A DNA stretch of 63,979 nt, the filler included, from Sandaracinaceae bacterium (GTDB lineage: Bacteria; Myxococcota_A; Polyangia; Polyangiales; JADJQN01): NCBI GenBank assembly GCA_947483975.1. It is 8 parts of 8 records of this genome, joined end to end, with 100 filler letters (N's around TTAATTAATTAA, not from the genome) between each part and the next. Parts side by side here need not be neighbours in the genome. Positions count along the whole stretch, not along the records: positions 1 to 8,033 come from CANKOL010000250.1; 7 more parts are not named here. One strand, given 5' to 3'. Below the pieces are notes generated by a model that was not told the origin of the DNA, ran no database searches, and was given only the letters and a program-made list of their open reading frames with translations. Below are positions 1 through 8,033 of the stretch, piece after piece; position 1 is the first letter of the stretch, and the number at the start of each line of letters is the position of its first letter. The translations under genes and the position numbers were made by a program.

Positions 1-665
1 CCGGGCTCCTCGAGGTCGATCGTGCGCAGCAGCGCCGCGGCCGCCGGGCGCTCACCCCAGCCGCGCTTGGCGATGGCGAGCGCGTAGTCGAGCGAGAGCG
101 CGTCGGGCAGCTCCGGGTAGCGCTCGCGCAGGTCCGCGAGCGCGCGCTCGCCGCGGCGGTCTCCGCTCCCGAGCAGGCAGCGCACGAGCCCGACCTCGGC
201 GCGCACGCCGACCGAGCGATCGAGGCTCTCGAGCGCGCGCGGATAGGCGAGGCAAGCGGCGACGGGATCGCCCGCCGCGAGCGAGAGGTCGCCCCGCAGC
301 AGCGCGAAGCGGTCCTCGAGCTCCGGCGCGTAGTGCTCGACGGTCCCGAGCACGACGAGCGCGCGCTGTGGCTCGCCCGCAGCCGCGAGGCGGCGCACCT
401 CGGCGAGCGCCGCGATCGCGTCCTCGACCGTGACGGGCGCGGTCGCCGTAGGCAGAAGCTCGGGCATCGTCGGCCCATCGCCGCACATCGAGGCGTCGCC
501 CGGCACGGGCGCGCGGTCGGTCGGCCAGGTCGAGAGCGTGTCCTCGGGGAACGTGCAGAGCGGCCCGTCCCAGGCGTGCGCGCGCAACGGTGCGCCACAG
601 AACGCGCCGCAGAGCGCGGCGGCTGTCAGCCCGATGCGTAGCCAGGGACCGCGACCGATGCGCAC
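1..665 (-). CDS. Secreted TPR-like helical protein, N-terminal part (runs off the window start)
   Basis: Manual translation (not in ORF track): GTG at 665, VRIGRGPWLRIGLTAAALCGAFCGAPLRAHA signal-like segment, then TPR-like helices (FALLRGDLSLAAGDPVAACLAY, RAEVGLVRCLLGSG); open to base 1. Confidence 0.65.
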   Translation of the reverse strand, partial: MRIGRGPWLRIGLTAAALCGAFCGAPLRAHAWDGPLCTFPEDTLSTWPTDRAPVPGDASMCGDGPTMPELLPTATAPVTVEDAIAALAEVRRLAAAGEPQRALVVLGTVEHYAPELEDRFALLRGDLSLAAGDPVAACLAYPRALESLDRSVGVRAEVGLVRCLLGSGDRRGERALADLRERYPELPDALSLDYALAIAKRGWGERPAAAALLRTIDLEEP

Positions 666-785
666 TCGTAGAGGGTGCGCGATCGCGGGAGCGGGCGCAA
701 AAACCGAGGGCTCGCGGTGACGCGCCGAGGTACGCCCGCCCTGCGCCGTCCACTCGGTGTCGCGGGGCGAGGCGGGGCCTCGGCG

Positions 786-929
786 TCACGAGGAGTCGGA
801 GTCGGCCACGGCGCAGTCGGTGGGGCGCGGGACCACTCCGAGCGCCACCGCCGACCCAAGCCCGATCGCGCCCAGCACCAACGCCTGGGCGCGCACGACC
901 GCCTGCGCCTGAGTGAGGATGCGGACCAT
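786..929 (-). CDS. Possible 47-aa hydrophobic small protein
   Basis: ATG at 929 preceded by GAGGA; MVRILTQAQAVVRAQALVLGAIGLGSAVALGVVP... with one hydrophobic segment. Confidence 0.3.
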   Translation of the reverse strand: MVRILTQAQAVVRAQALVLGAIGLGSAVALGVVPRPTDCAVADSDSS

Positions 930-1009
930 CCCGTCCTCGAGCACGACGAGGACCTCCGAGCGTGGAGGCGACACCGCGGCGCGCTGCCCGCACGTGGCAC
1001 ACTGACGAC

Positions 1010-1954
1010 ATGCGCAGGCTTCTTTCAGCAACGACGTTGCTCGTATCGCTCGTGGCGTGTGAGCCCGGCTCGCCATCACCGCCGCCGGTCGATGCTTACG
1101 AGAACGCGGTCGCCGCCTGCGCGGCGTTCGTGGCCTGTGACTTCTCGTGGCCGGACCTCGGGTGGTGCGTCGAGTCCGTGCTCGGCGACGCGCTGCCGTC
1201 GCTCTCTCCACGCGCGGACGACGTGGGGTGCATCGCAGCCGCACACGGCGACTGTGACGCGATCCGCGCCTGCATTGGCTGGAGCGCGGTCCCCGCCGGG
1301 GGCGCGTGCAGTGGACGCTGCGACGGGGAGACTCTGGTGGTGTGTCTCGGCGGCGACGAGAATCGGATCGACTGCCCACACACCGCACCTGGCAACACGT
1401 GCGTCACCTATCCTCCAGCGCCCGGCGACACCCGCGCTCCCGCTCATGCCTGCACGAGTCCCGAGTGTCCGGCGTACGGAGGCTCGTCGTGCTTTGGCGA
1501 CGATGTCGCGAGCTGCGGGATCGAGTCGTACCGTACTCTCGAACTCTGTCCGGAAGGGACGGGGTGCGCGCTCTATCCAGACCCCTCGGGCACCGTGAGC
1601 TACTACGGCTGTGTGGGCCTCGGGGCGACCTGCACCGAGGCGCGCTGCGATGGGACGGTCTCCCGCCCGTGCGTCCAGGGTCGCGAGGCCCTTCCATTCG
1701 ATTGCGCCGAGCGCGGGCTCGCGTGCGTGCGTGGCTTCTGCGACTTCTACGATCCTTCGGTGCTCTGCCACGGAGGCCCGACGGAGCACACCTGCGAGGG
1801 GGATGTGCTCGTGTACTGCAACTCGGGCCGGACGACGCGGGTCGACTGCCGGTCCCTCGGCTTCGCGTCATGCGAGCCTGTCTTCTCGTCGAGCTTCCGC
1901 ACGGCGAGCTGCGCGCCCGCCGGTGGTCGCAGGACCCGCCCGCCGGGTCCTTGA
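1010..1954 (+). CDS. Cys-rich lipoprotein
   Basis: MRRLLSATTLLVSLVAC lipobox; repeated CxGDxLxxC-type motifs. Confidence 0.8.
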   Translation: MRRLLSATTLLVSLVACEPGSPSPPPVDAYENAVAACAAFVACDFSWPDLGWCVESVLGDALPSLSPRADDVGCIAAAHGDCDAIRACIGWSAVPAGGACSGRCDGETLVVCLGGDENRIDCPHTAPGNTCVTYPPAPGDTRAPAHACTSPECPAYGGSSCFGDDVASCGIESYRTLELCPEGTGCALYPDPSGTVSYYGCVGLGATCTEARCDGTVSRPCVQGREALPFDCAERGLACVRGFCDFYDPSVLCHGGPTEHTCEGDVLVYCNSGRTTRVDCRSLGFASCEPVFSSSFRTASCAPAGGRRTRPPGP

Positions 1955-2045
1955 GCGTTGGCCGTCCGCGCGAACGCTTCGCGGCGCGCATGACCGTCGA
2001 TGCCTGCGGCGAGGCGATCGTCGCCGTCGCGGCACCGAGGTGATC

Positions 2046-2167
2046 CTACGGCGCCGTCCAGGTGCTGAGCACGGCGGGCGCCGCCGGCATGCCGAGCCGC
2101 TCGGCGTTGGGTGTCGAGAGCAGCTCGACCGAGGTGATCGCGCCGTCGGAGGTCGGCAGGTTGATGG
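2046..2167 (-). pseudogene. C-terminal fragment of an unknown gene, cut by the IS91-like remnant
   Basis: Minus-strand INLPTSDGAITSVELLSTPNAERLGMPAAPAVLSTWTAP* with host-like GC3 codons and no start. Confidence 0.35.
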
Positions 2168-2241
2168 CCGAGGTGTTCCCGGAGGTGCCGACGCGGCGGT
2201 GGGTGTGCTCGCTCCCGTGGCGGCTGCGCGTCTTGCTGGGC
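2164..2241 (+). pseudogene. IS91-family (Y2 rolling-circle) transposase, short internal fragment
   Basis: AEVFPEVPTRRWVCSLPWRLRVLLG resembles the conserved VLPxVPVRQWVxSLPWxLR motif; joined directly to the element-end repeat. Confidence 0.65.
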
Positions 2242-2409
2242 GAGGTGCGTCCGGCGCGTGAAGATCAGTGGAGAGTCGGGGATTCCCGCTTCGCCGAAGA
2301 CCGTCCAAAGACTCGCCTCGACGCCAAGATGGTGCTGCGGGGCGCCGTCGCGTAGGGTTCAGCGGTGCATGGAGCGGGGACGAATCACCGTTCGGCTGTC
2401 CTACGCGCC
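2242..2409 (+). repeat. ~168-bp direct repeat, copy 1 (putative IS91-type element end)
   Basis: Near-identical to 3984-4150; ends ...GTCCTACGCGCC. Confidence 0.9.
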
Positions 2410-3564
2410 TGCTCGCTGCTCATGGTGGCCCTGGTGGGCTGTCGCAGCGGGCAGGACGCGGCGGCTGTGCGCCCTCCTTCTGCCGTGCTCCCGCCGACTC
2501 CGACGAGCGCTCCGACGAAGCGAGTCGTGGCGCCCGTCAGCGTGGCAGCGCCAGCCCCCGCAGCGGCGCTCGATGCGGGGGATGAGGTGGCCGTCGCGGG
2601 GTCCGATGGTGGCGCCGAGGCGGGGGATGACGCTCCCGTCGCACGGCTCGACGGTGGCGCCGATGCGACCGTGGCGACGGCGCAGGTCTCGGTCGGCGAC
2701 GCTCCGCCGCTCGCGCATTGCCTCTGGTACGCCGACTCGTCGCCGCCCGCGTCGGAGGGCCCAGGGAGCATGGTCGAGCTCGATGAGCGCATCACCGCGG
2801 CGCTGCACCGCGAGGCGCTCGTGGTCGGTCGGGTGCGGCTCGCCGCGCGCGGCTGCCCGGTCGTGTCTGCGGGCGTCGCGGTCGTGCGCAACGCGGCTGA
2901 TCCGGTGGACGACGAGGACTCCCCCCTCGTGCCGCTCACGATCACCGGGGACGACGCGGACCGCGGGCCCGTCGTCGGCGCGCGCGGCGATGAGCGCCGC
3001 GACGGACCTTGGCCGGGCTCGACGGAGAAGAACGCGAACTGCAACCCGACCGCCGCACCCGAGCTCTACTTGTTCCGCGCGGTGCACGGCGCGGACGGCA
3101 CAGTGGCCGCGCTCGCGCTCGCGCATCTCTCGGGGGACGCGTGCGGCGTCTATGGGCATGACCTGCAGTTCGGCGACCTCGACGGCGACGGCACGACGGA
3201 GCTTCGCGTCGAGTCGCTGACGGGCAGCGAGGAGGAGAATGAGGGCGACTCTCGCGAGCAACTGCTGTGGCTCTTCGACTTGGCGACGCTGCGCCCAGAG
3301 CTCGCCCTGAACGTGGGGCGTCACTACGCGTACGGTGCCGCTCCCGGCCTGACGGAGTCGACCACGGGGAGCATCTCGCTCCGCGACGTCGACGGCGACG
3401 GCGACCGCGACGTCATCTTCCGCCACTTCACCGAGGCGGTGGATGAGCTGAACGGCCACGGGACGACTCGGGAGTGGACGACGGAGGTCCACGCCTACGA
3501 CCCGGCGACGGACACCTACGTTCGCGCGCAGGCGCTCGACGCGCGCGTCACGCAGCGCCGCTGA
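2365..3564 (+). CDS. Lipoprotein with FG-GAP/DxDGDG Ca-binding motifs
   Basis: LLMVALVGC lipobox, Pro/Ala linker, DLDGDGTTEL and DVDGDGDRDV motifs; start uncertain (2365 lies inside the repeat, alternative 2422). Confidence 0.75.
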   Translation: MHGAGTNHRSAVLRACSLLMVALVGCRSGQDAAAVRPPSAVLPPTPTSAPTKRVVAPVSVAAPAPAAALDAGDEVAVAGSDGGAEAGDDAPVARLDGGADATVATAQVSVGDAPPLAHCLWYADSSPPASEGPGSMVELDERITAALHREALVVGRVRLAARGCPVVSAGVAVVRNAADPVDDEDSPLVPLTITGDDADRGPVVGARGDERRDGPWPGSTEKNANCNPTAAPELYLFRAVHGADGTVAALALAHLSGDACGVYGHDLQFGDLDGDGTTELRVESLTGSEEENEGDSREQLLWLFDLATLRPELALNVGRHYAYGAAPGLTESTTGSISLRDVDGDGDRDVIFRHFTEAVDELNGHGTTREWTTEVHAYDPATDTYVRAQALDARVTQRR

Positions 3565-3589
3565 CGATGTCAGGCGAGCGACGAGGCGC

Positions 3590-3928
3590 GGCTCGCTGGG
3601 CGCGGAGGTCGTACCGAACAAACCGGCTGAGCCGCCCGCGCAGCTCCCGCTGTTCGGCGAGGCGGACGAGCCGACGACATCTGCGAAGGGTGCGGCGAAG
3701 AAGCCGGCTGAGCCATCGCGGCATTTATGGTCATGGTTGCTGCAACGGGTGTTCGCCGTAGACGTCTTGAAGTGCGAGAGGTGCGGCGGTCGTTTGCGGC
3801 TCGTCGAGATCGCGAAGAAGCCCAACGACATCAGCCGCGTGCTCGGCGACCTCGGCTACGCGAGAGCGCCGCCTCGCGCAGAGTCGTCGGCGACCGCGTA
3901 TGGGCAGCTGCGGCTCGCGCTCGGGTGA
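3590..3928 (+). pseudogene. IS91-family transposase, C-terminal fragment
   Basis: AEVVP...WSWLLQRVFAVDVLKCERCGGRLRLVEI...APPRA matches the C-terminal zinc-ribbon signature; catalytic region absent. Confidence 0.8.
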
Positions 3929-3983
3929 GGCCGCCTCGAGTGACCTCGGTGCGTTGAGCGGCTGCGCAGAGCGCGGCCAGGGA

Positions 3984-4150
3984 GAGGTGCGTCCGGCGCG
4001 CGAAAATCAGTGGAGAGTGGGGATTCCCGCTTCGCCGAAGACCGTCCAAAGACTCGCCTCGACGCCAAGATGGTGCTGCGGGGCGCCGTCGCGTAGGGTT
4101 CAGCGGTGCATGGAGCGGGGACGAATCACCGATCGGAGGTCCTACGCGCC
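3984..4150 (+). repeat. ~167-bp direct repeat, copy 2 (putative IS91-type element end)
   Basis: Near-identical to 2242-2409; lies just 3' of the transposase C-terminal fragment. Confidence 0.9.
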
Positions 4151-4184
4151 GGGGACGAATCACCGATCGGAGGTCCTACGCGCC
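4117..4184 (+). repeat. Perfect 34-bp tandem duplication of the repeat's terminal segment
   Basis: GGGGACGAATCACCGATCGGAGGTCCTACGCGCC x2 (4117-4150, 4151-4184). Confidence 0.95.
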
Positions 4185-4198
4185 CGACGCTGCACATC

Positions 4199-4333
4199 AT
4201 GAGCCGCCCCGCCGCCGCGGAGGTCACCGCGCAGCTCGACCACTTCGCGCCGCGCATTCCGGTGCTCGTCGAGCTCGCGCTCGGCGACGTCCCGGTCGTC
4301 GCCCCCATCATCCACGCGCGCGGGCTGCGCTGA
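4199..4333 (+). CDS. Possible 44-aa ORF or gene remnant coupled to the next gene
   Basis: MSRPAAAEVTAQLDHFAPRIPVLVEL..., GC3-rich, TGATG overlap with 4333. Confidence 0.3.
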   Translation: MSRPAAAEVTAQLDHFAPRIPVLVELALGDVPVVAPIIHARGLR

Positions 4334-6066
4334 TGGCAACGGAGGTGCCGCGAGCCCGCGGGCTCCTCGTCGCGGCGCTCCTGTCGACCGCCGCGTGCGG
4401 CGTCGACGTCCAAGTCCAAGTCGTCCCTGTAGGCGGTACGACGCGCCACCGCCTCGTGGTCGGGTACGCCTCCGCCTGTGTCGTGCTCGACGACGGCGGA
4501 GTTGCCTGCTGGGGCGCGGGGCAGCGCGGGGAGCTCGGCGTGCCGATGCGCTCCGACTCGGGGACGCCCGTGCGCGTGCGTGGCCTCGCCCGCATCGTCA
4601 CTTTGGATGGGTACGGAGCTGCCTTTTGCGCAGCCGACGCTGAGGGGCGCGTGTGGTGCTGGGGAAGAATGTGGAGTGGTGGTCCAGCGCTCGGCGACAC
4701 GCCGCGCCGTGTCGATGGATTGGACGCGTCGCGGACGTTGACGGTGGGAGACACGCGCGTCTGCGGCGTGAGCCGTGCGGGGATTCACTGCGTCTTCGCC
4801 CGTACTCCGCTCGACGCGAGCTTGCGCGAGGGCAGCAACCTCATCGACTACGACGACGAGGCCCGCTGCGCCCTCACGGACGGCGGCGACGTCATCTGCG
4901 TCACCGGCCCGAGCGGTAATCCCACGACGACGACGGTGGCCTCGGCCGCGAGCGCGCTCGACGGGTGGTGCTCCGTCGATGCACTTGGCACGCGCACCTG
5001 TAGCCGCTCCACGACTCCCTCGGAGACGCTCACCGACGTCGCGAGCGTCGGCACCGGTCGTGCGTACGAGCACTGCTACGTGCTCTTCGACGGTCGGATC
5101 CTCTGTCGCGCCGGCCTCGAGTGGATTCCGAAGCGGAGCGACCATCGGTTCGTGGAGGTGGGAGGGACGCTGCAGCAAGGGTGCGCGCGAACGGACGACG
5201 GTGCCGTGCTCTGCTGGGGAGACAACCTCAGTGGGCTACTCGGGCCCGACGCTGGTCCTCACAGCGACGTGCCGGTGCGCATCCCCGGCCTCGCGCTCGG
5301 TGGTACGCCGGAGGTCGTCGAAGCGCCGCCATCGGGGCTCGCGTGCTTTGCCGCCGACCGAGACGGCGACGGTCTCTTCGACTGGATCGAGGGGACCGAC
5401 GACCTCGACGAGGACGGGCTGCTCGCGTGGGAGGACAGCGACACCGACGGCGACGGGACGACCGATGCAGTCGAGGCTGCCCCGTCTCTGGCACCTTGCC
5501 TGACCTCTCCGCCGAACTCGATTTGCGACTCGGACGCATGGCCAGACTACGCCGACCTCGATCAGGACGACGACGGCGTGCTCGACCGCGACGAGAGCAT
5601 CGAAGCGCGTTGCACGGACGATGCCGACCGCGACGGCTGCCCGGACGTCGCCATCGCCCAGTTTGGGACGTGCGACGACCACCACGGCGCGACCATCGTC
5701 GACGACCCCGCGGGGGCTTTCGCCCGCGCGTCGCTCACGCTCACGGTCCCCGTGGGACCGGACCCAGGCGAGGTGTTCTTGGTAGACCTCGAGACCGATA
5801 CACTGGGCCAGCGCTTCGTCTTCTCGGCCACGGAGGTCATCTCCGGCGTGGCAACACCGAGCGGCGACCGCTTCGTAGACACGCAGTCGGGCGCGCAGCT
5901 TCGTTTCGGCGTGGAGGCCAGCGCCGGGTACGGTGCCCGCAGCGGCGCGAGTGGCATACCGGGCATCGAAACGCACAGGCTACAGCTGGTCGACACGACC
6001 GGCACCGTGCTCGACGAGGCCACGATGATCACGGTCATCGCAGCGATCCCCTCGTGGGGACCCTGA
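4333..6066 (+). CDS. Lipoprotein with RCC1/BLIP-II-like repeats and Asp-rich Ca-binding (TSP3-like) repeats
   Basis: LLSTAAC lipobox; ACWGAGQRGELG, LCWGDNLSGLLG; DRDGDGL, DTDGDG, DQDDDGVLD. Confidence 0.85.
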   Translation: MATEVPRARGLLVAALLSTAACGVDVQVQVVPVGGTTRHRLVVGYASACVVLDDGGVACWGAGQRGELGVPMRSDSGTPVRVRGLARIVTLDGYGAAFCAADAEGRVWCWGRMWSGGPALGDTPRRVDGLDASRTLTVGDTRVCGVSRAGIHCVFARTPLDASLREGSNLIDYDDEARCALTDGGDVICVTGPSGNPTTTTVASAASALDGWCSVDALGTRTCSRSTTPSETLTDVASVGTGRAYEHCYVLFDGRILCRAGLEWIPKRSDHRFVEVGGTLQQGCARTDDGAVLCWGDNLSGLLGPDAGPHSDVPVRIPGLALGGTPEVVEAPPSGLACFAADRDGDGLFDWIEGTDDLDEDGLLAWEDSDTDGDGTTDAVEAAPSLAPCLTSPPNSICDSDAWPDYADLDQDDDGVLDRDESIEARCTDDADRDGCPDVAIAQFGTCDDHHGATIVDDPAGAFARASLTLTVPVGPDPGEVFLVDLETDTLGQRFVFSATEVISGVATPSGDRFVDTQSGAQLRFGVEASAGYGARSGASGIPGIETHRLQLVDTTGTVLDEATMITVIAAIPSWGP

Positions 6067-6069
6067 GAC

Positions 6070-6240
6070 TCAGCCCTCTTCGCCTGGCGTGACGGGCGTC
6101 GCGGATCGGGGGAGAAGCAACCGTCCCACGGGGATCTCCACTTCCTCGAACGGCGGAACGCGCGCGACGTCCGCTTCGCCGAACGCGCCAGTATCGACCC
6201 AGCGCCCATCACGCAGCGCGAGCGTCTCGAGCGTCCGCGA
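6070..6240 (-). pseudogene. Uma2-family endonuclease, C-terminal remnant
   Basis: RTLETLALRDGRWVDTGAFGEADVARVPPFEEVEIPVGRL resembles the Uma2 C-terminus; catalytic N-terminal part missing. Confidence 0.7.
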
Positions 6241-6355
6241 GTACGGCACGCATGGTCGCCTCGCTGATTCCAGCGCGAACCCGCAGAACCTATGCGCCGC
6301 GAACCGCGTCGGAGCCCGCTCGGCCGCTTCCGGCGGCTGGCCGCGTCGACCTCGG

Positions 6356-6671
6356 AAGGGGTGATCCCTTGCCTCGAGGCGCGCGAGATCGACTTGCGAA
6401 GGGTTCGACCCTTGGCGCAGAGCCCGGGGTCCTCGACGGCGCAAGGGTCGGACCCTTCACGGAGAGTGCGTCGAGCGTGACAGCGAAGGGTCGGACCCTT
6501 CGCCCGAGGATGTTCGCGGCGGGTGCGCGAGGGTTCGACCCTTACCGCAAGGCGGAGCGCGATCTGCGGCGCAAGGGTCGGACCCTTGGCGCGACGTGCG
6601 CGGCCACTTCGCGGAAGGGGTCAACCCTAGGCGGGGCGATCTCGGGGGCCGCGCGGAAGGGGTGCACCCTT
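6356..6671. repeat. Regularly interspaced array of eight 15-bp palindromes (AAGGG-N5-CCCTT) with unique 27-29-bp spacers
   Basis: Copies start at 6356, 6399, 6443, 6486, 6529, 6573, 6615, 6657; consensus AAGGGTCGGACCCTT. Confidence 0.9.
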
Positions 6672-6879
6672 CGTCGAAGGGCAGCGAGCGCGGCGTGGGG
6701 AGGCCCTGAGAGAGCTCGGAGCGGTCCCCGACAGGGGTCGAGCAGACGCGACCTACTCGGAGTCGTCCAAGCACGCTCCGCGAGGTGGCGCAGAGCACTC
6801 GGAGCGCACGCGGGCGACTCCGCACGCGCGGCGGGTCACGCCTTGCGAGGCGTCTCAGTCGCCGCGCGCACGCTCGCTC

Positions 6880-6922
6880 GCGGCTCAACTTTGGTCGGGT
6901 GGCGGCTCAACCTTGGTCGGGT
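6880..6922 (+). repeat. 21-bp direct repeat x2
   Basis: GCGGCTCAACTTTGGTCGGGT and GCGGCTCAACCTTGGTCGGGT. Confidence 0.85.
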
Positions 6923-6936
6923 CGCGCCGAGCGAGC

Positions 6937-6965
6937 TTGACCGTTCATGAACGGTCATGAAGACT
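6937..6965 (+). promoter_or_regulatory. TA promoter with a perfect 20-bp palindromic operator
   Basis: TGACCGTTCATGAACGGTCA (6938-6957) overlaps TTGACC(-35)-17bp-AAGACT(-10); ATG 7 bp later with no SD. Confidence 0.65.
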
Positions 6966-6972
6966 CTGCGCG

Positions 6973-7185
6973 ATGAAGGCAGTGAAGTTCGCGACGCAGC
7001 TCGACGCCGAGGTGGCGAAGGACTTGCGCGCGTTCGCGGTCCACGCGGATCGGAGCATCTCGGGGATCGTGAACGAGGCGGTCGCCGAGTACCTGCAGCG
7101 GCGGCGTGTGCGGCCGGCGTTTCGAGCCGCGCTCGACGAGGTGCTCACCGACCACGACGAGCTGCTTCGGCGCCTGGCGAAGTGA
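6973..7185 (+). CDS. Ribbon-helix-helix/CopG-like antitoxin
   Basis: 70 aa; beta-strand VKFATQLD followed by two helices (RSISGIVNEAVAEYL); GTGA overlap with the toxin. Confidence 0.8.
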   Translation: MKAVKFATQLDAEVAKDLRAFAVHADRSISGIVNEAVAEYLQRRRVRPAFRAALDEVLTDHDELLRRLAK

Positions 7186-7559
7186 CGCCGACCCTCTACC
7201 CGACGCTCGACGAGGCGCTCGAGCTTCACAGCGTCTTGCTCGCGCGTTTTGGCGGCGCGGGCGGCGTGCGCGACCTCGGCCTCCTCGAGAGCGCGCTGTC
7301 GCGACCGCAGACCGGCTACTACGACACCCTGACCCTGCAGGCGGCGGCGCTCTTGCAGAGCCTCGTGATGAACCACGCCTTCGTCGATGGGAACAAACGC
7401 GTGGCCTTCGCGCTCACCGCGATCTTCCTGCGCATGAACGGCCCCCGTCTCCGGGTGCCCGCCGACGAGGGAGAGCGCTTCCTCATCGACTCCGTGATCG
7501 CTCGCCGCGTCGAGCTGGCCGACATCGCGAGCTGGCTCGAGCGACACAGCGGCGGGTAG
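7182..7559 (+). CDS. doc: Doc (death-on-curing)/Fic family toxin
   Basis: GVRDLGLLESALSRP and NHAFVDGNKRVA (Doc-type K in the Fic motif). Confidence 0.9.
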   Translation: MTPTLYPTLDEALELHSVLLARFGGAGGVRDLGLLESALSRPQTGYYDTLTLQAAALLQSLVMNHAFVDGNKRVAFALTAIFLRMNGPRLRVPADEGERFLIDSVIARRVELADIASWLERHSGG

Positions 7560-7682
7560 TCCCGCGAAACAGCTGAGCCGTCGCCTGGGATGGTCGCGAG
7601 GAGTGGCGCGCGAGCGGCGCGGTCACGTAGGGAGTCGCGTTGGTCGCCCCGTGTATCAGGAGCGTGACCGGTAGCTGAGCTG

Positions 7683-8033
7683 CTACTGGTGTCGCGCGCG
7701 TCGTCGCGCAGGGACGGGATGAGCACGGTGCTTGAGCTCGAGGTTCCCGCCCGCGAGGCCCTTGCCGCCGACGGTCAGGCGCAGCGGGATGCCGAGGAGG
7801 TCGGCGTCCTTGAACTTCACGCCGGGGCGCTCGTCGCGGTCGTCGAGGAGCACGTCGACGCCGCGCGCGCGGAGCGCCGCGTAGGCAGCCTCGGCGGCGT
7901 CGCGCACGGCGTCGTCCTTGCCGAGCGCGGTGATGATCACGTGGTAGGGCGCGATGCCCATCGGCCACGCGATGCCGTCCGCGTCGTGGTTCTGCTCGAC
8001 CGCCGCGGCGACGAGGCGCGAGACGCCGATGCC
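7683..8033 (-). CDS. proS: Prolyl-tRNA synthetase, C-terminal part (contig edge)
   Basis: [50 protein letters not shown]. Confidence 0.9.

Follow-up and report, generated by a model that had tools for sequence, protein, structure and literature searches.

A worn 43-bp dyad array in a Sandaracinaceae genome as a probable gene-less orphan of an undescribed array–helical protein cassette

The window, that is, the whole stretch of DNA that was analysed (63,979 nucleotides), consists of several contigs joined by N runs, and the array considered here lies on one of them, the 8033-base contig G000:C250 (positions 1-8033), G000 being the source genome (5.3 Mb, 81% complete). The features of the locus are listed in Table 1. 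An earlier note on this DNA had placed a nuclease remnant and a toxin–antitoxin module beside the array; both are present, the module as an RHH-like gene and a Doc gene. The remnant has no Pfam or NCBIfam hit of its own, and its intact counterpart on contig C475 is presumably a Uma2-type nuclease gene. The palindrome over the promoter region of the toxin–antitoxin (TA) module is likely to be the antitoxin operator, as judged by analogy, and the module appears to be a bystander to the array. The proposal that the TA module or the Uma2-type gene is the partner of the array fails, and each is rejected as a constant partner by a tabulation of the neighbours of other arrays, which are mostly unrelated genes.

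Table 1. Features in and around the array on contig G000:C250 (window positions).
Position	Strand	Feature	Similarity or basis
6070..6246	-	Uma2-type nuclease 3' remnant, ~58 codons, 5' two thirds missing	80-81% identical to intact gene C475:904-1047
6300..6355	-	Worn left end of the block	Loose ends of lake-run variants
6356..6671	.	Core array: eight AAGGG-N5-CCCTT dyads, 42-44-bp period, linkers diverged yet related	
6672..6823	.	Worn right end and second 42-bp tandem pair with a different core (pair at 6739-6823)	TRF
6878..6926	.	22-bp direct-repeat pair, separate dispersed family	31 G000 hits at <=2 mismatches
6922..6973	+	Palindrome over the TA promoter region (putative operator)	Inverted repeat
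6973..7185	+	RHH/RelB-like antitoxin, 70 aa	PF20605 E 0.014; NF048017 E 0.0014, below cut-off
7182..7559	+	Doc (Fic) toxin, 125 aa	PF02661 E 4e-15; TIGR01550 above cut-off

Further left on the contig, a segment of ~170 bp is found twice (2238-2409 and 3593-4150; 96% identical) and also on several other contigs. It adjoins the C-terminal remnant of a transposase, which we take to be IS91-like, the gene between its copies has an 81% paralogue on C32, and an exact 34-bp tandem duplication (4116-4184) lies at its end. The stretches 4184-4323 and 6096-6239 match neighbouring genes of C475, being the ends of a phosphodiesterase-like gene and of the Uma2-type gene, respectively, and an RCC1-like gene (4333-6066) sits between these two pieces, as in a duplicated fragment that took an insertion.

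The eight AAGGG-N5-CCCTT copies described previously are confirmed, with starts at 6356, 6399, 6443, 6486, 6529, 6573, 6615 and 6657, and so are the periods of 43, 44, 43, 43, 44, 42 and 42 bp between them. When one mismatch is allowed, the motif has nine matches in the window as against 0.28 expected, and none of 100 shuffles reaches nine. Seven exact copies exist in the whole of G000, six of them in this array. The period is not a constant multiple of 3, and a protein repeat is rejected, the 232-aa ORF that runs across the array having no Pfam hit. It also holds that no known Rfam family accounts for the array, as the search returns only two hits, at E 4.9.

The linkers between the dyads had been considered unrelated to each other, which the data contradict: their mean pairwise score is 12.6, compared with 10.6±0.4 after shuffling, and this value is reached in none of 500 shuffles. 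It had also been argued that unique spacers rule out a VNTR, but TRF with lenient settings reports 6.9 tandem copies of a 43-bp unit at 6335-6633 (62% matches, score 200). A second copy of the array, at G000:C200:7634-7913, is 76% identical to it unit for unit and has its linkers in the same order; the two agree at 133 of 196 bases in the linkers and at 96 of 120 in the palindromes. By-eye counts of the arms against the consensus give 78 matching bases out of 80 in the window array and 65 out of 80 in the C200 copy. Substitutions and single-base indels aside, the linkers recur unchanged in lake metagenomes (seven distinct runs from several studies, one of which is a possible source of this DNA), where neither joints inside the array nor gain or loss of units is seen in the assembled contigs, these being short pieces from which rare variants are dropped; lake contigs also show further array copies with other flanks. 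The array is real, a worn tandem repeat of 43 bp that occurs a second time in G000.

These properties separate the array from CRISPR, with which it shares regularly spaced short palindromes. CRISPR repeats are near-identical and of about 23-50 bp, whereas the window array has a degenerate 15-bp dyad with a variable centre, and no Rfam CRISPR repeat matches in the window. The linkers have no match in phages and a single match in plasmids (E 0.3); against G000, the BLAST matches listed are short GC-rich chance matches only. The earlier note had found no cas gene on the contig, and none is present among the 11 ORFs scanned, a statement that covers 8 kb since only positions 1-8033 of the window form one contig; a Cas1 profile has two partial hits on other contigs of the 81% complete genome. 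Five hits are obtained in viral contigs, none of them like the window array, and no close homologues of the block are found in 400 other genomes, beyond short chance-level matches, or in two metagenome scans. CRISPR-like acquired spacers are rejected on account of the related linkers, their kept order in the C200 copy, the lack of turnover in the lakes and the lack of phage matches: unlike a CRISPR array, the window array has inherited linkers without protospacers in phages, and no cas gene among the ORFs scanned on its 8-kb contig. The suggested repeat-spacer or small-RNA system is not supported for the same reasons, the linkers being diverged repeat units in kept order. With the dyad and the period kept while the linkers drift, an old array of this kind would come to mimic repeats with unique spacers.

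The dyad is not confined to this genome. A two-unit pattern matches 20 of 301 genomes of the order (Polyangiales), which is no enrichment by itself, since the reversed control matches about 21; a three-unit pattern gives at least 120 loci in many phyla, and among the matches listed most have near-identical units, as in young tandem repeats. Many scattered 42-45-bp arrays with a related dyad are also seen in marine gammaproteobacterial genomes (L038, L039, L045, L069, L093 and similar). From the order and related myxobacteria, 29 loci were examined; two have no array and one is a duplicate, leaving 26 array loci. In six of these a Pfam-less gene of ~290 aa lies ~100-450 bp from the array, which is upstream of it, and these genes belong to two families, A (L011, L186, L189, L191) and B (the orthologous pair L192 and L193). 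The remaining 20 arrays lie between unrelated genes, with no family gene adjoining. The window array has the 40-44-bp period and the dyad that are also found in the gene-linked arrays, and L011 and L186 are the family arrays whose units resemble its own most.

Family A is present in 57 of 151 genomes of the order, with 10 genes in G000, and comprises 4974 representatives (clusters at 50% identity) at E 0.001. When 81 genes are picked by protein score alone, and short flanks and tandem genes are dropped, the best autocorrelation lag is 40-44 bp in 58 of 75 upstream regions, 10 of 74 downstream regions and 62 of 1000 random windows, counts to which no P value is attached because related genomes are not independent. 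The downstream arrays belong mostly to one clade without upstream ones; a clade with a 41-43-bp array just downstream of the family A gene comprises L230, L232, L235, L239, L243, L263 and L273. Between array and gene, usually after a T-tract, the motif GCAAC-N14-17-CGA is found in 57 of 77 upstream cases, compared with 7 of 79 downstream and 6.8% of random sequences. Known ECF-type promoters have the form AAC-N16-CG, and by this likeness the motif is a putative ECF-type promoter. A HerA-like ATPase motif (HerA/CedB/TraD-type profile hits) follows 28 of 77 family A genes. Family B, in 26 of 151 genomes, has the same plan without detectable sequence similarity to family A: an array is found upstream in 21 of 31 cases and downstream in 9 of 29, the leader in 21 of 31 and the ATPase in 4 of 31 (one locus from an unpublished genome was dropped and two seed loci were kept). 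The layout of array, promoter motif and gene is thus family-wide, and the unit sequences differ at almost every locus; the units are alike in six of seven protein pairs of >75% identity and not alike below about 60%. Within G000, the family genes on C102 and C103 are each preceded by an array related to a feature of the window locus: that of C102 is decayed and resembles, by eye, the 42-bp tandem pair at 6739-6823, and that of C103, with a 21-bp period, is built from the unit of the 6878-6926 pair.

The partner proteins of both families have no Pfam or NCBIfam family. For family A a confident all-helical model is predicted (pLDDT 86.6), whose best VIA Z score, 8.9, is to generic bundles, with Avd/four-helix-bundle rows at Z about 7 as a lead only; there is no clear structural match and no solved relative by sequence. 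The protein lacks any known DNA-binding motif; its median net charge is -6, and its last helix has conserved arginines. The Pro-rich tail recurs in a third helical subfamily, seen at L309:1837-2613 (G000:C47), where the gene has a 43-bp array upstream, and at C127:1935-2570. No description of an array paired with a helical gene is found in the literature searched, most subscription journals being outside its coverage, and the cassette of array, helical protein and, in some cases, ATPase is an undescribed arrangement. The view of the earlier note that the array is part of something undescribed is borne out; its likely partner is an all-helical gene family, whose gene is missing at the window locus.

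Arrays without a gene are common. A 40-44 period is found in 65 stretches of G000, some of them coding repeats, with the window array just under the threshold of the scan. Visual selection of non-coding arrays that are not near family A genes gives 34 candidates, among them the window and C200 arrays; of these, none has the full leader and 33 have no family gene adjoining, while one precedes a third, weakly A-like helical gene. The gene-linked arrays on C304, C123 and C51 have sister copies, 75-91% identical, without a family gene beside them, two of these sisters being at contig ends, and the copies on C38 and C208 match that of C304 as far as the leader but end short of the promoter box. A strong leader without a gene is seen in other genomes at L179, L182 and L187; at L179 a Uma2 gene directly follows array and leader, and at L191 it follows the helical gene. 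Orphan sister copies of gene-linked arrays therefore exist. At the window locus the GCAAC-N15-CCGA leader and the family gene next to the array are both absent, so that the window array is filed as an orphan copy and not as an intact cassette.

The direction in which the lost parts would have been placed can be judged by analogy. On the strand with TCCGA in the dyad centre, the gene is found 3' of the array at L186 and L189, and the window array would accordingly read on the - strand (TCCGA core), pointing at the Uma2-type remnant and towards a gene on the left that is absent. A promoter leader receives no significant matrix score on either side of the array (3.2 and 3.6), and this matrix scan does not support an apparent leader remnant, suggested on inspection by 12 bases shared with the L189 leader. 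The lake variant copies are shared with the window from about 6300-6306 and differ further left, that of run X11 leaving at 6300 (three contigs) and those of runs X12 and X13 at 6306. Beyond this point the X11 variant has, on the predicted side, a - strand T-tract and a CGCAAC half-site, which X12 and X13 show in part; no more than half of the promoter motif is visible, and the hexamer is expected by chance in 30 bases at ~1% (rough estimate). No target-site duplication is seen by eye at the ends of the C250 and C200 arrays. A contig of run X11 skips 6925-7014 (88 bases), by which the TA promoter palindrome and the start of the antitoxin gene are lost and the Doc gene is kept.

When compared with known systems, the gene-linked arrays resemble in layout a plasmid centromere and a Bacteroidota gene family. 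The sopC centromere of the F plasmid, which works with SopB and SopA, consists of 12 units of 43 bp, each with a 16-bp dyad. It shares with the cassette arrays the ~43-bp period, the single dyad per unit and the adjoining genes for a small protein and an ATPase. In the cassette, however, the partner is all-helical without a ParB or HTH signature, the ATPase is HerA-type and not ParA, and many chromosomal cassettes exist, each with its own unit. DUF6261 (PF19775), which ranks first among named clusters in the ESM Atlas (0.78-0.79), shares the plan of families A and B: among 11 genes examined in one Bacteroidota genome, all six with 750 bp upstream have an array of 41-42-bp period. HHalign gives a probability below 1% for DUF6261 against families A and B, and PF19775 has no hit in G000; between family B and DUF6261 there are weak HMM cross-hits (E 0.001-0.01, small sets).

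Constant-size satellites and REP-type repeats are the other relevant comparisons. A 22/44-nt repeat class is reportedly described in a 2020 paper by Subirana and Messeguer. The available parts of two papers by these authors describe constant-size non-coding bacterial tandem repeats with units of 20-21 and 52 nt (PMC8161180, PMC6749651), which share with the present arrays an intergenic tandem arrangement, a constant unit length, a free sequence and the presence of several families per genome; their 20-23-nt class is half of the window array period. The core array likewise consists of non-coding head-to-tail units of constant length (TRF period 43), although its divergence would keep it from passing strict satellite filters. 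The accessible text of PMC8161180 does not contain 'upstream', 'palindrom' or 'Myxo', and no partner gene, promoter or ATPase is described in it. With REP/BIME and TIR repeats, as presented in the available parts of PMC3733652 and PMC6006769, the arrays share short GC-rich palindromes that are intergenic and clustered, with dispersed orphans and kept linkers. Those repeats form inverted pairs of high copy number, whereas the window array is head-to-tail with a fixed 42-44 period, and its type amounts to two arrays and seven exact dyads in G000. A REP-type 5' tetranucleotide foot is not found, the in-register unit listing having no constant foot, and the arrays are tied to helical genes.

Taken together, the window array is probably a gene-less orphan of the undescribed array–helical protein(–ATPase) cassette, in which the array would be a phased docking strip. 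The symmetry of the dyads, their fixed N5 spacing and a period of whole turns, which persists even when the sequence changes completely, make the array a candidate for binding of duplex DNA on one helix face. A dimeric protein, in all likelihood the helical product of the parent cassette itself, would dock there on the dyads, one per four helical turns and on one face of the helix, beside the ECF-type promoter, and in about a third of the cassettes it would work with the co-encoded HerA-type ATPase. Selection would hold the dyad and the period and let the linkers drift. The array and part of the leader would have been copied or left behind without promoter and gene; at the window locus this orphaning would have lost both, and the front of the Uma2-type gene may have gone with them. 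The earlier note had offered a protein-binding array phased at ~4 helical turns or a small-RNA array, and it is the former that fits the evidence. We infer that the simplest candidate binder is the product of the adjacent helical gene. Against this protein as the binder are its negative charge, the lack of a known DNA-binding motif and the lack of a clear fold match, and strict matching of protein and site is argued against by L011 and L186, where the same dyad accompanies proteins that are only distantly related. Since its arms are well kept, the window array may have been orphaned recently or may still be bound by a protein from another locus; this copy itself is probably a relic. A gene-linked copy of this exact array is found neither in the 400 other genomes nor in the two metagenome scans.

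An unlikely alternative, yet the best of the rivals, is a free REP/TIR-like satellite, whose hairpin units would be amplified by a Y1 (RAYT/TIRYT) or other HUH enzyme at neutral intergenic sites and would lie near helical genes only secondarily. Orphan status could equally mean an independent satellite, since 20 of the 26 dyad arrays and 33 of the 34 G000 candidates have no family gene, orphans being the majority of arrays, and the spread of the dyad over tandem arrays of many phyla points the same way. The dyad also resembles the GGGGWSAS motif of TIRYT-flanking repeats, as given in the available parts of PMC3733652 and PMC6006769, and in genome G080 one single dyad copy lies just downstream of a Y1 gene. 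However, the sole Y1_Tnp hit of G000 is flanked by a different repeat, which speaks against a cognate RAYT in this genome, genome G146 has 15 exact dyad copies and no Y1 hit, and REP pairs of alternating orientation and a GTAG foot are not seen. The upstream link to family A, at 58 of 75, is also far beyond chance insertion. At G000:C47:13600-14900 (L152), a RAYT-type Y1 gene is flanked by many copies of its own REP.

It is also conceivable, but quite improbable, that a general host factor, either a nucleoid protein or a promoter activator, binds the array and tunes any adjacent gene, which here would be the TA operon, or else tunes DNA structure. This would account for arrays of one period but of free sequence beside three protein families without detectable similarity, and for well-kept arms in a block that is present in lakes of several studies, and a nucleoid role is proposed for constant-size bacterial repeats in the available part of PMC8161180. 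Yet units that differ at almost every locus are needless for a single sequence-specific factor, the C200 copy is decayed, the TA operon has its own palindrome and the orphans show no consistent neighbour. Least probable by some way is an array of repeats transcribed and processed to ~43-nt RNAs that partner the helical protein, as in a type III toxin–antitoxin-like system or a mini-CRISPR: the array does fold much more stably than its shuffled versions, whichever strand is taken (z -5.8 and -7.0), and arrays occur up- or downstream of the gene, but the folding stems from the palindromes and shows no strand preference, upstream arrays would be outside the transcript from the promoter-like motif because this motif sits between array and gene, the linkers show no turnover in the lakes, no phage match and the one plasmid match already given, and the fixed N5 spacing and whole-turn period fit duplex DNA.

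With the docking-strip reading of the orphan array preferred, the analysis removes a false CRISPR-like candidate, and such look-alikes would arise when dyads and period stay and linkers drift. It also ties the open question of constant-length, free-sequence non-coding repeats to testable parts, namely helical proteins, an ECF-like motif and a HerA-type ATPase, with two families without detectable sequence similarity following one plan; the locus adds the orphan side, in which arrays are spread without promoter or gene. A bolder proposal, which is doubtful at present, is that the helical proteins dock on private four-turn arrays and recruit a HerA-type translocase, that the same activity copies arrays round the chromosome, and that the window array is a seeded site still served in trans. 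If true, this would explain the dozens of 41-43-bp arrays in sister families within one 5-Mb genome, and it would be the first mechanism for constant-period bacterial satellites.
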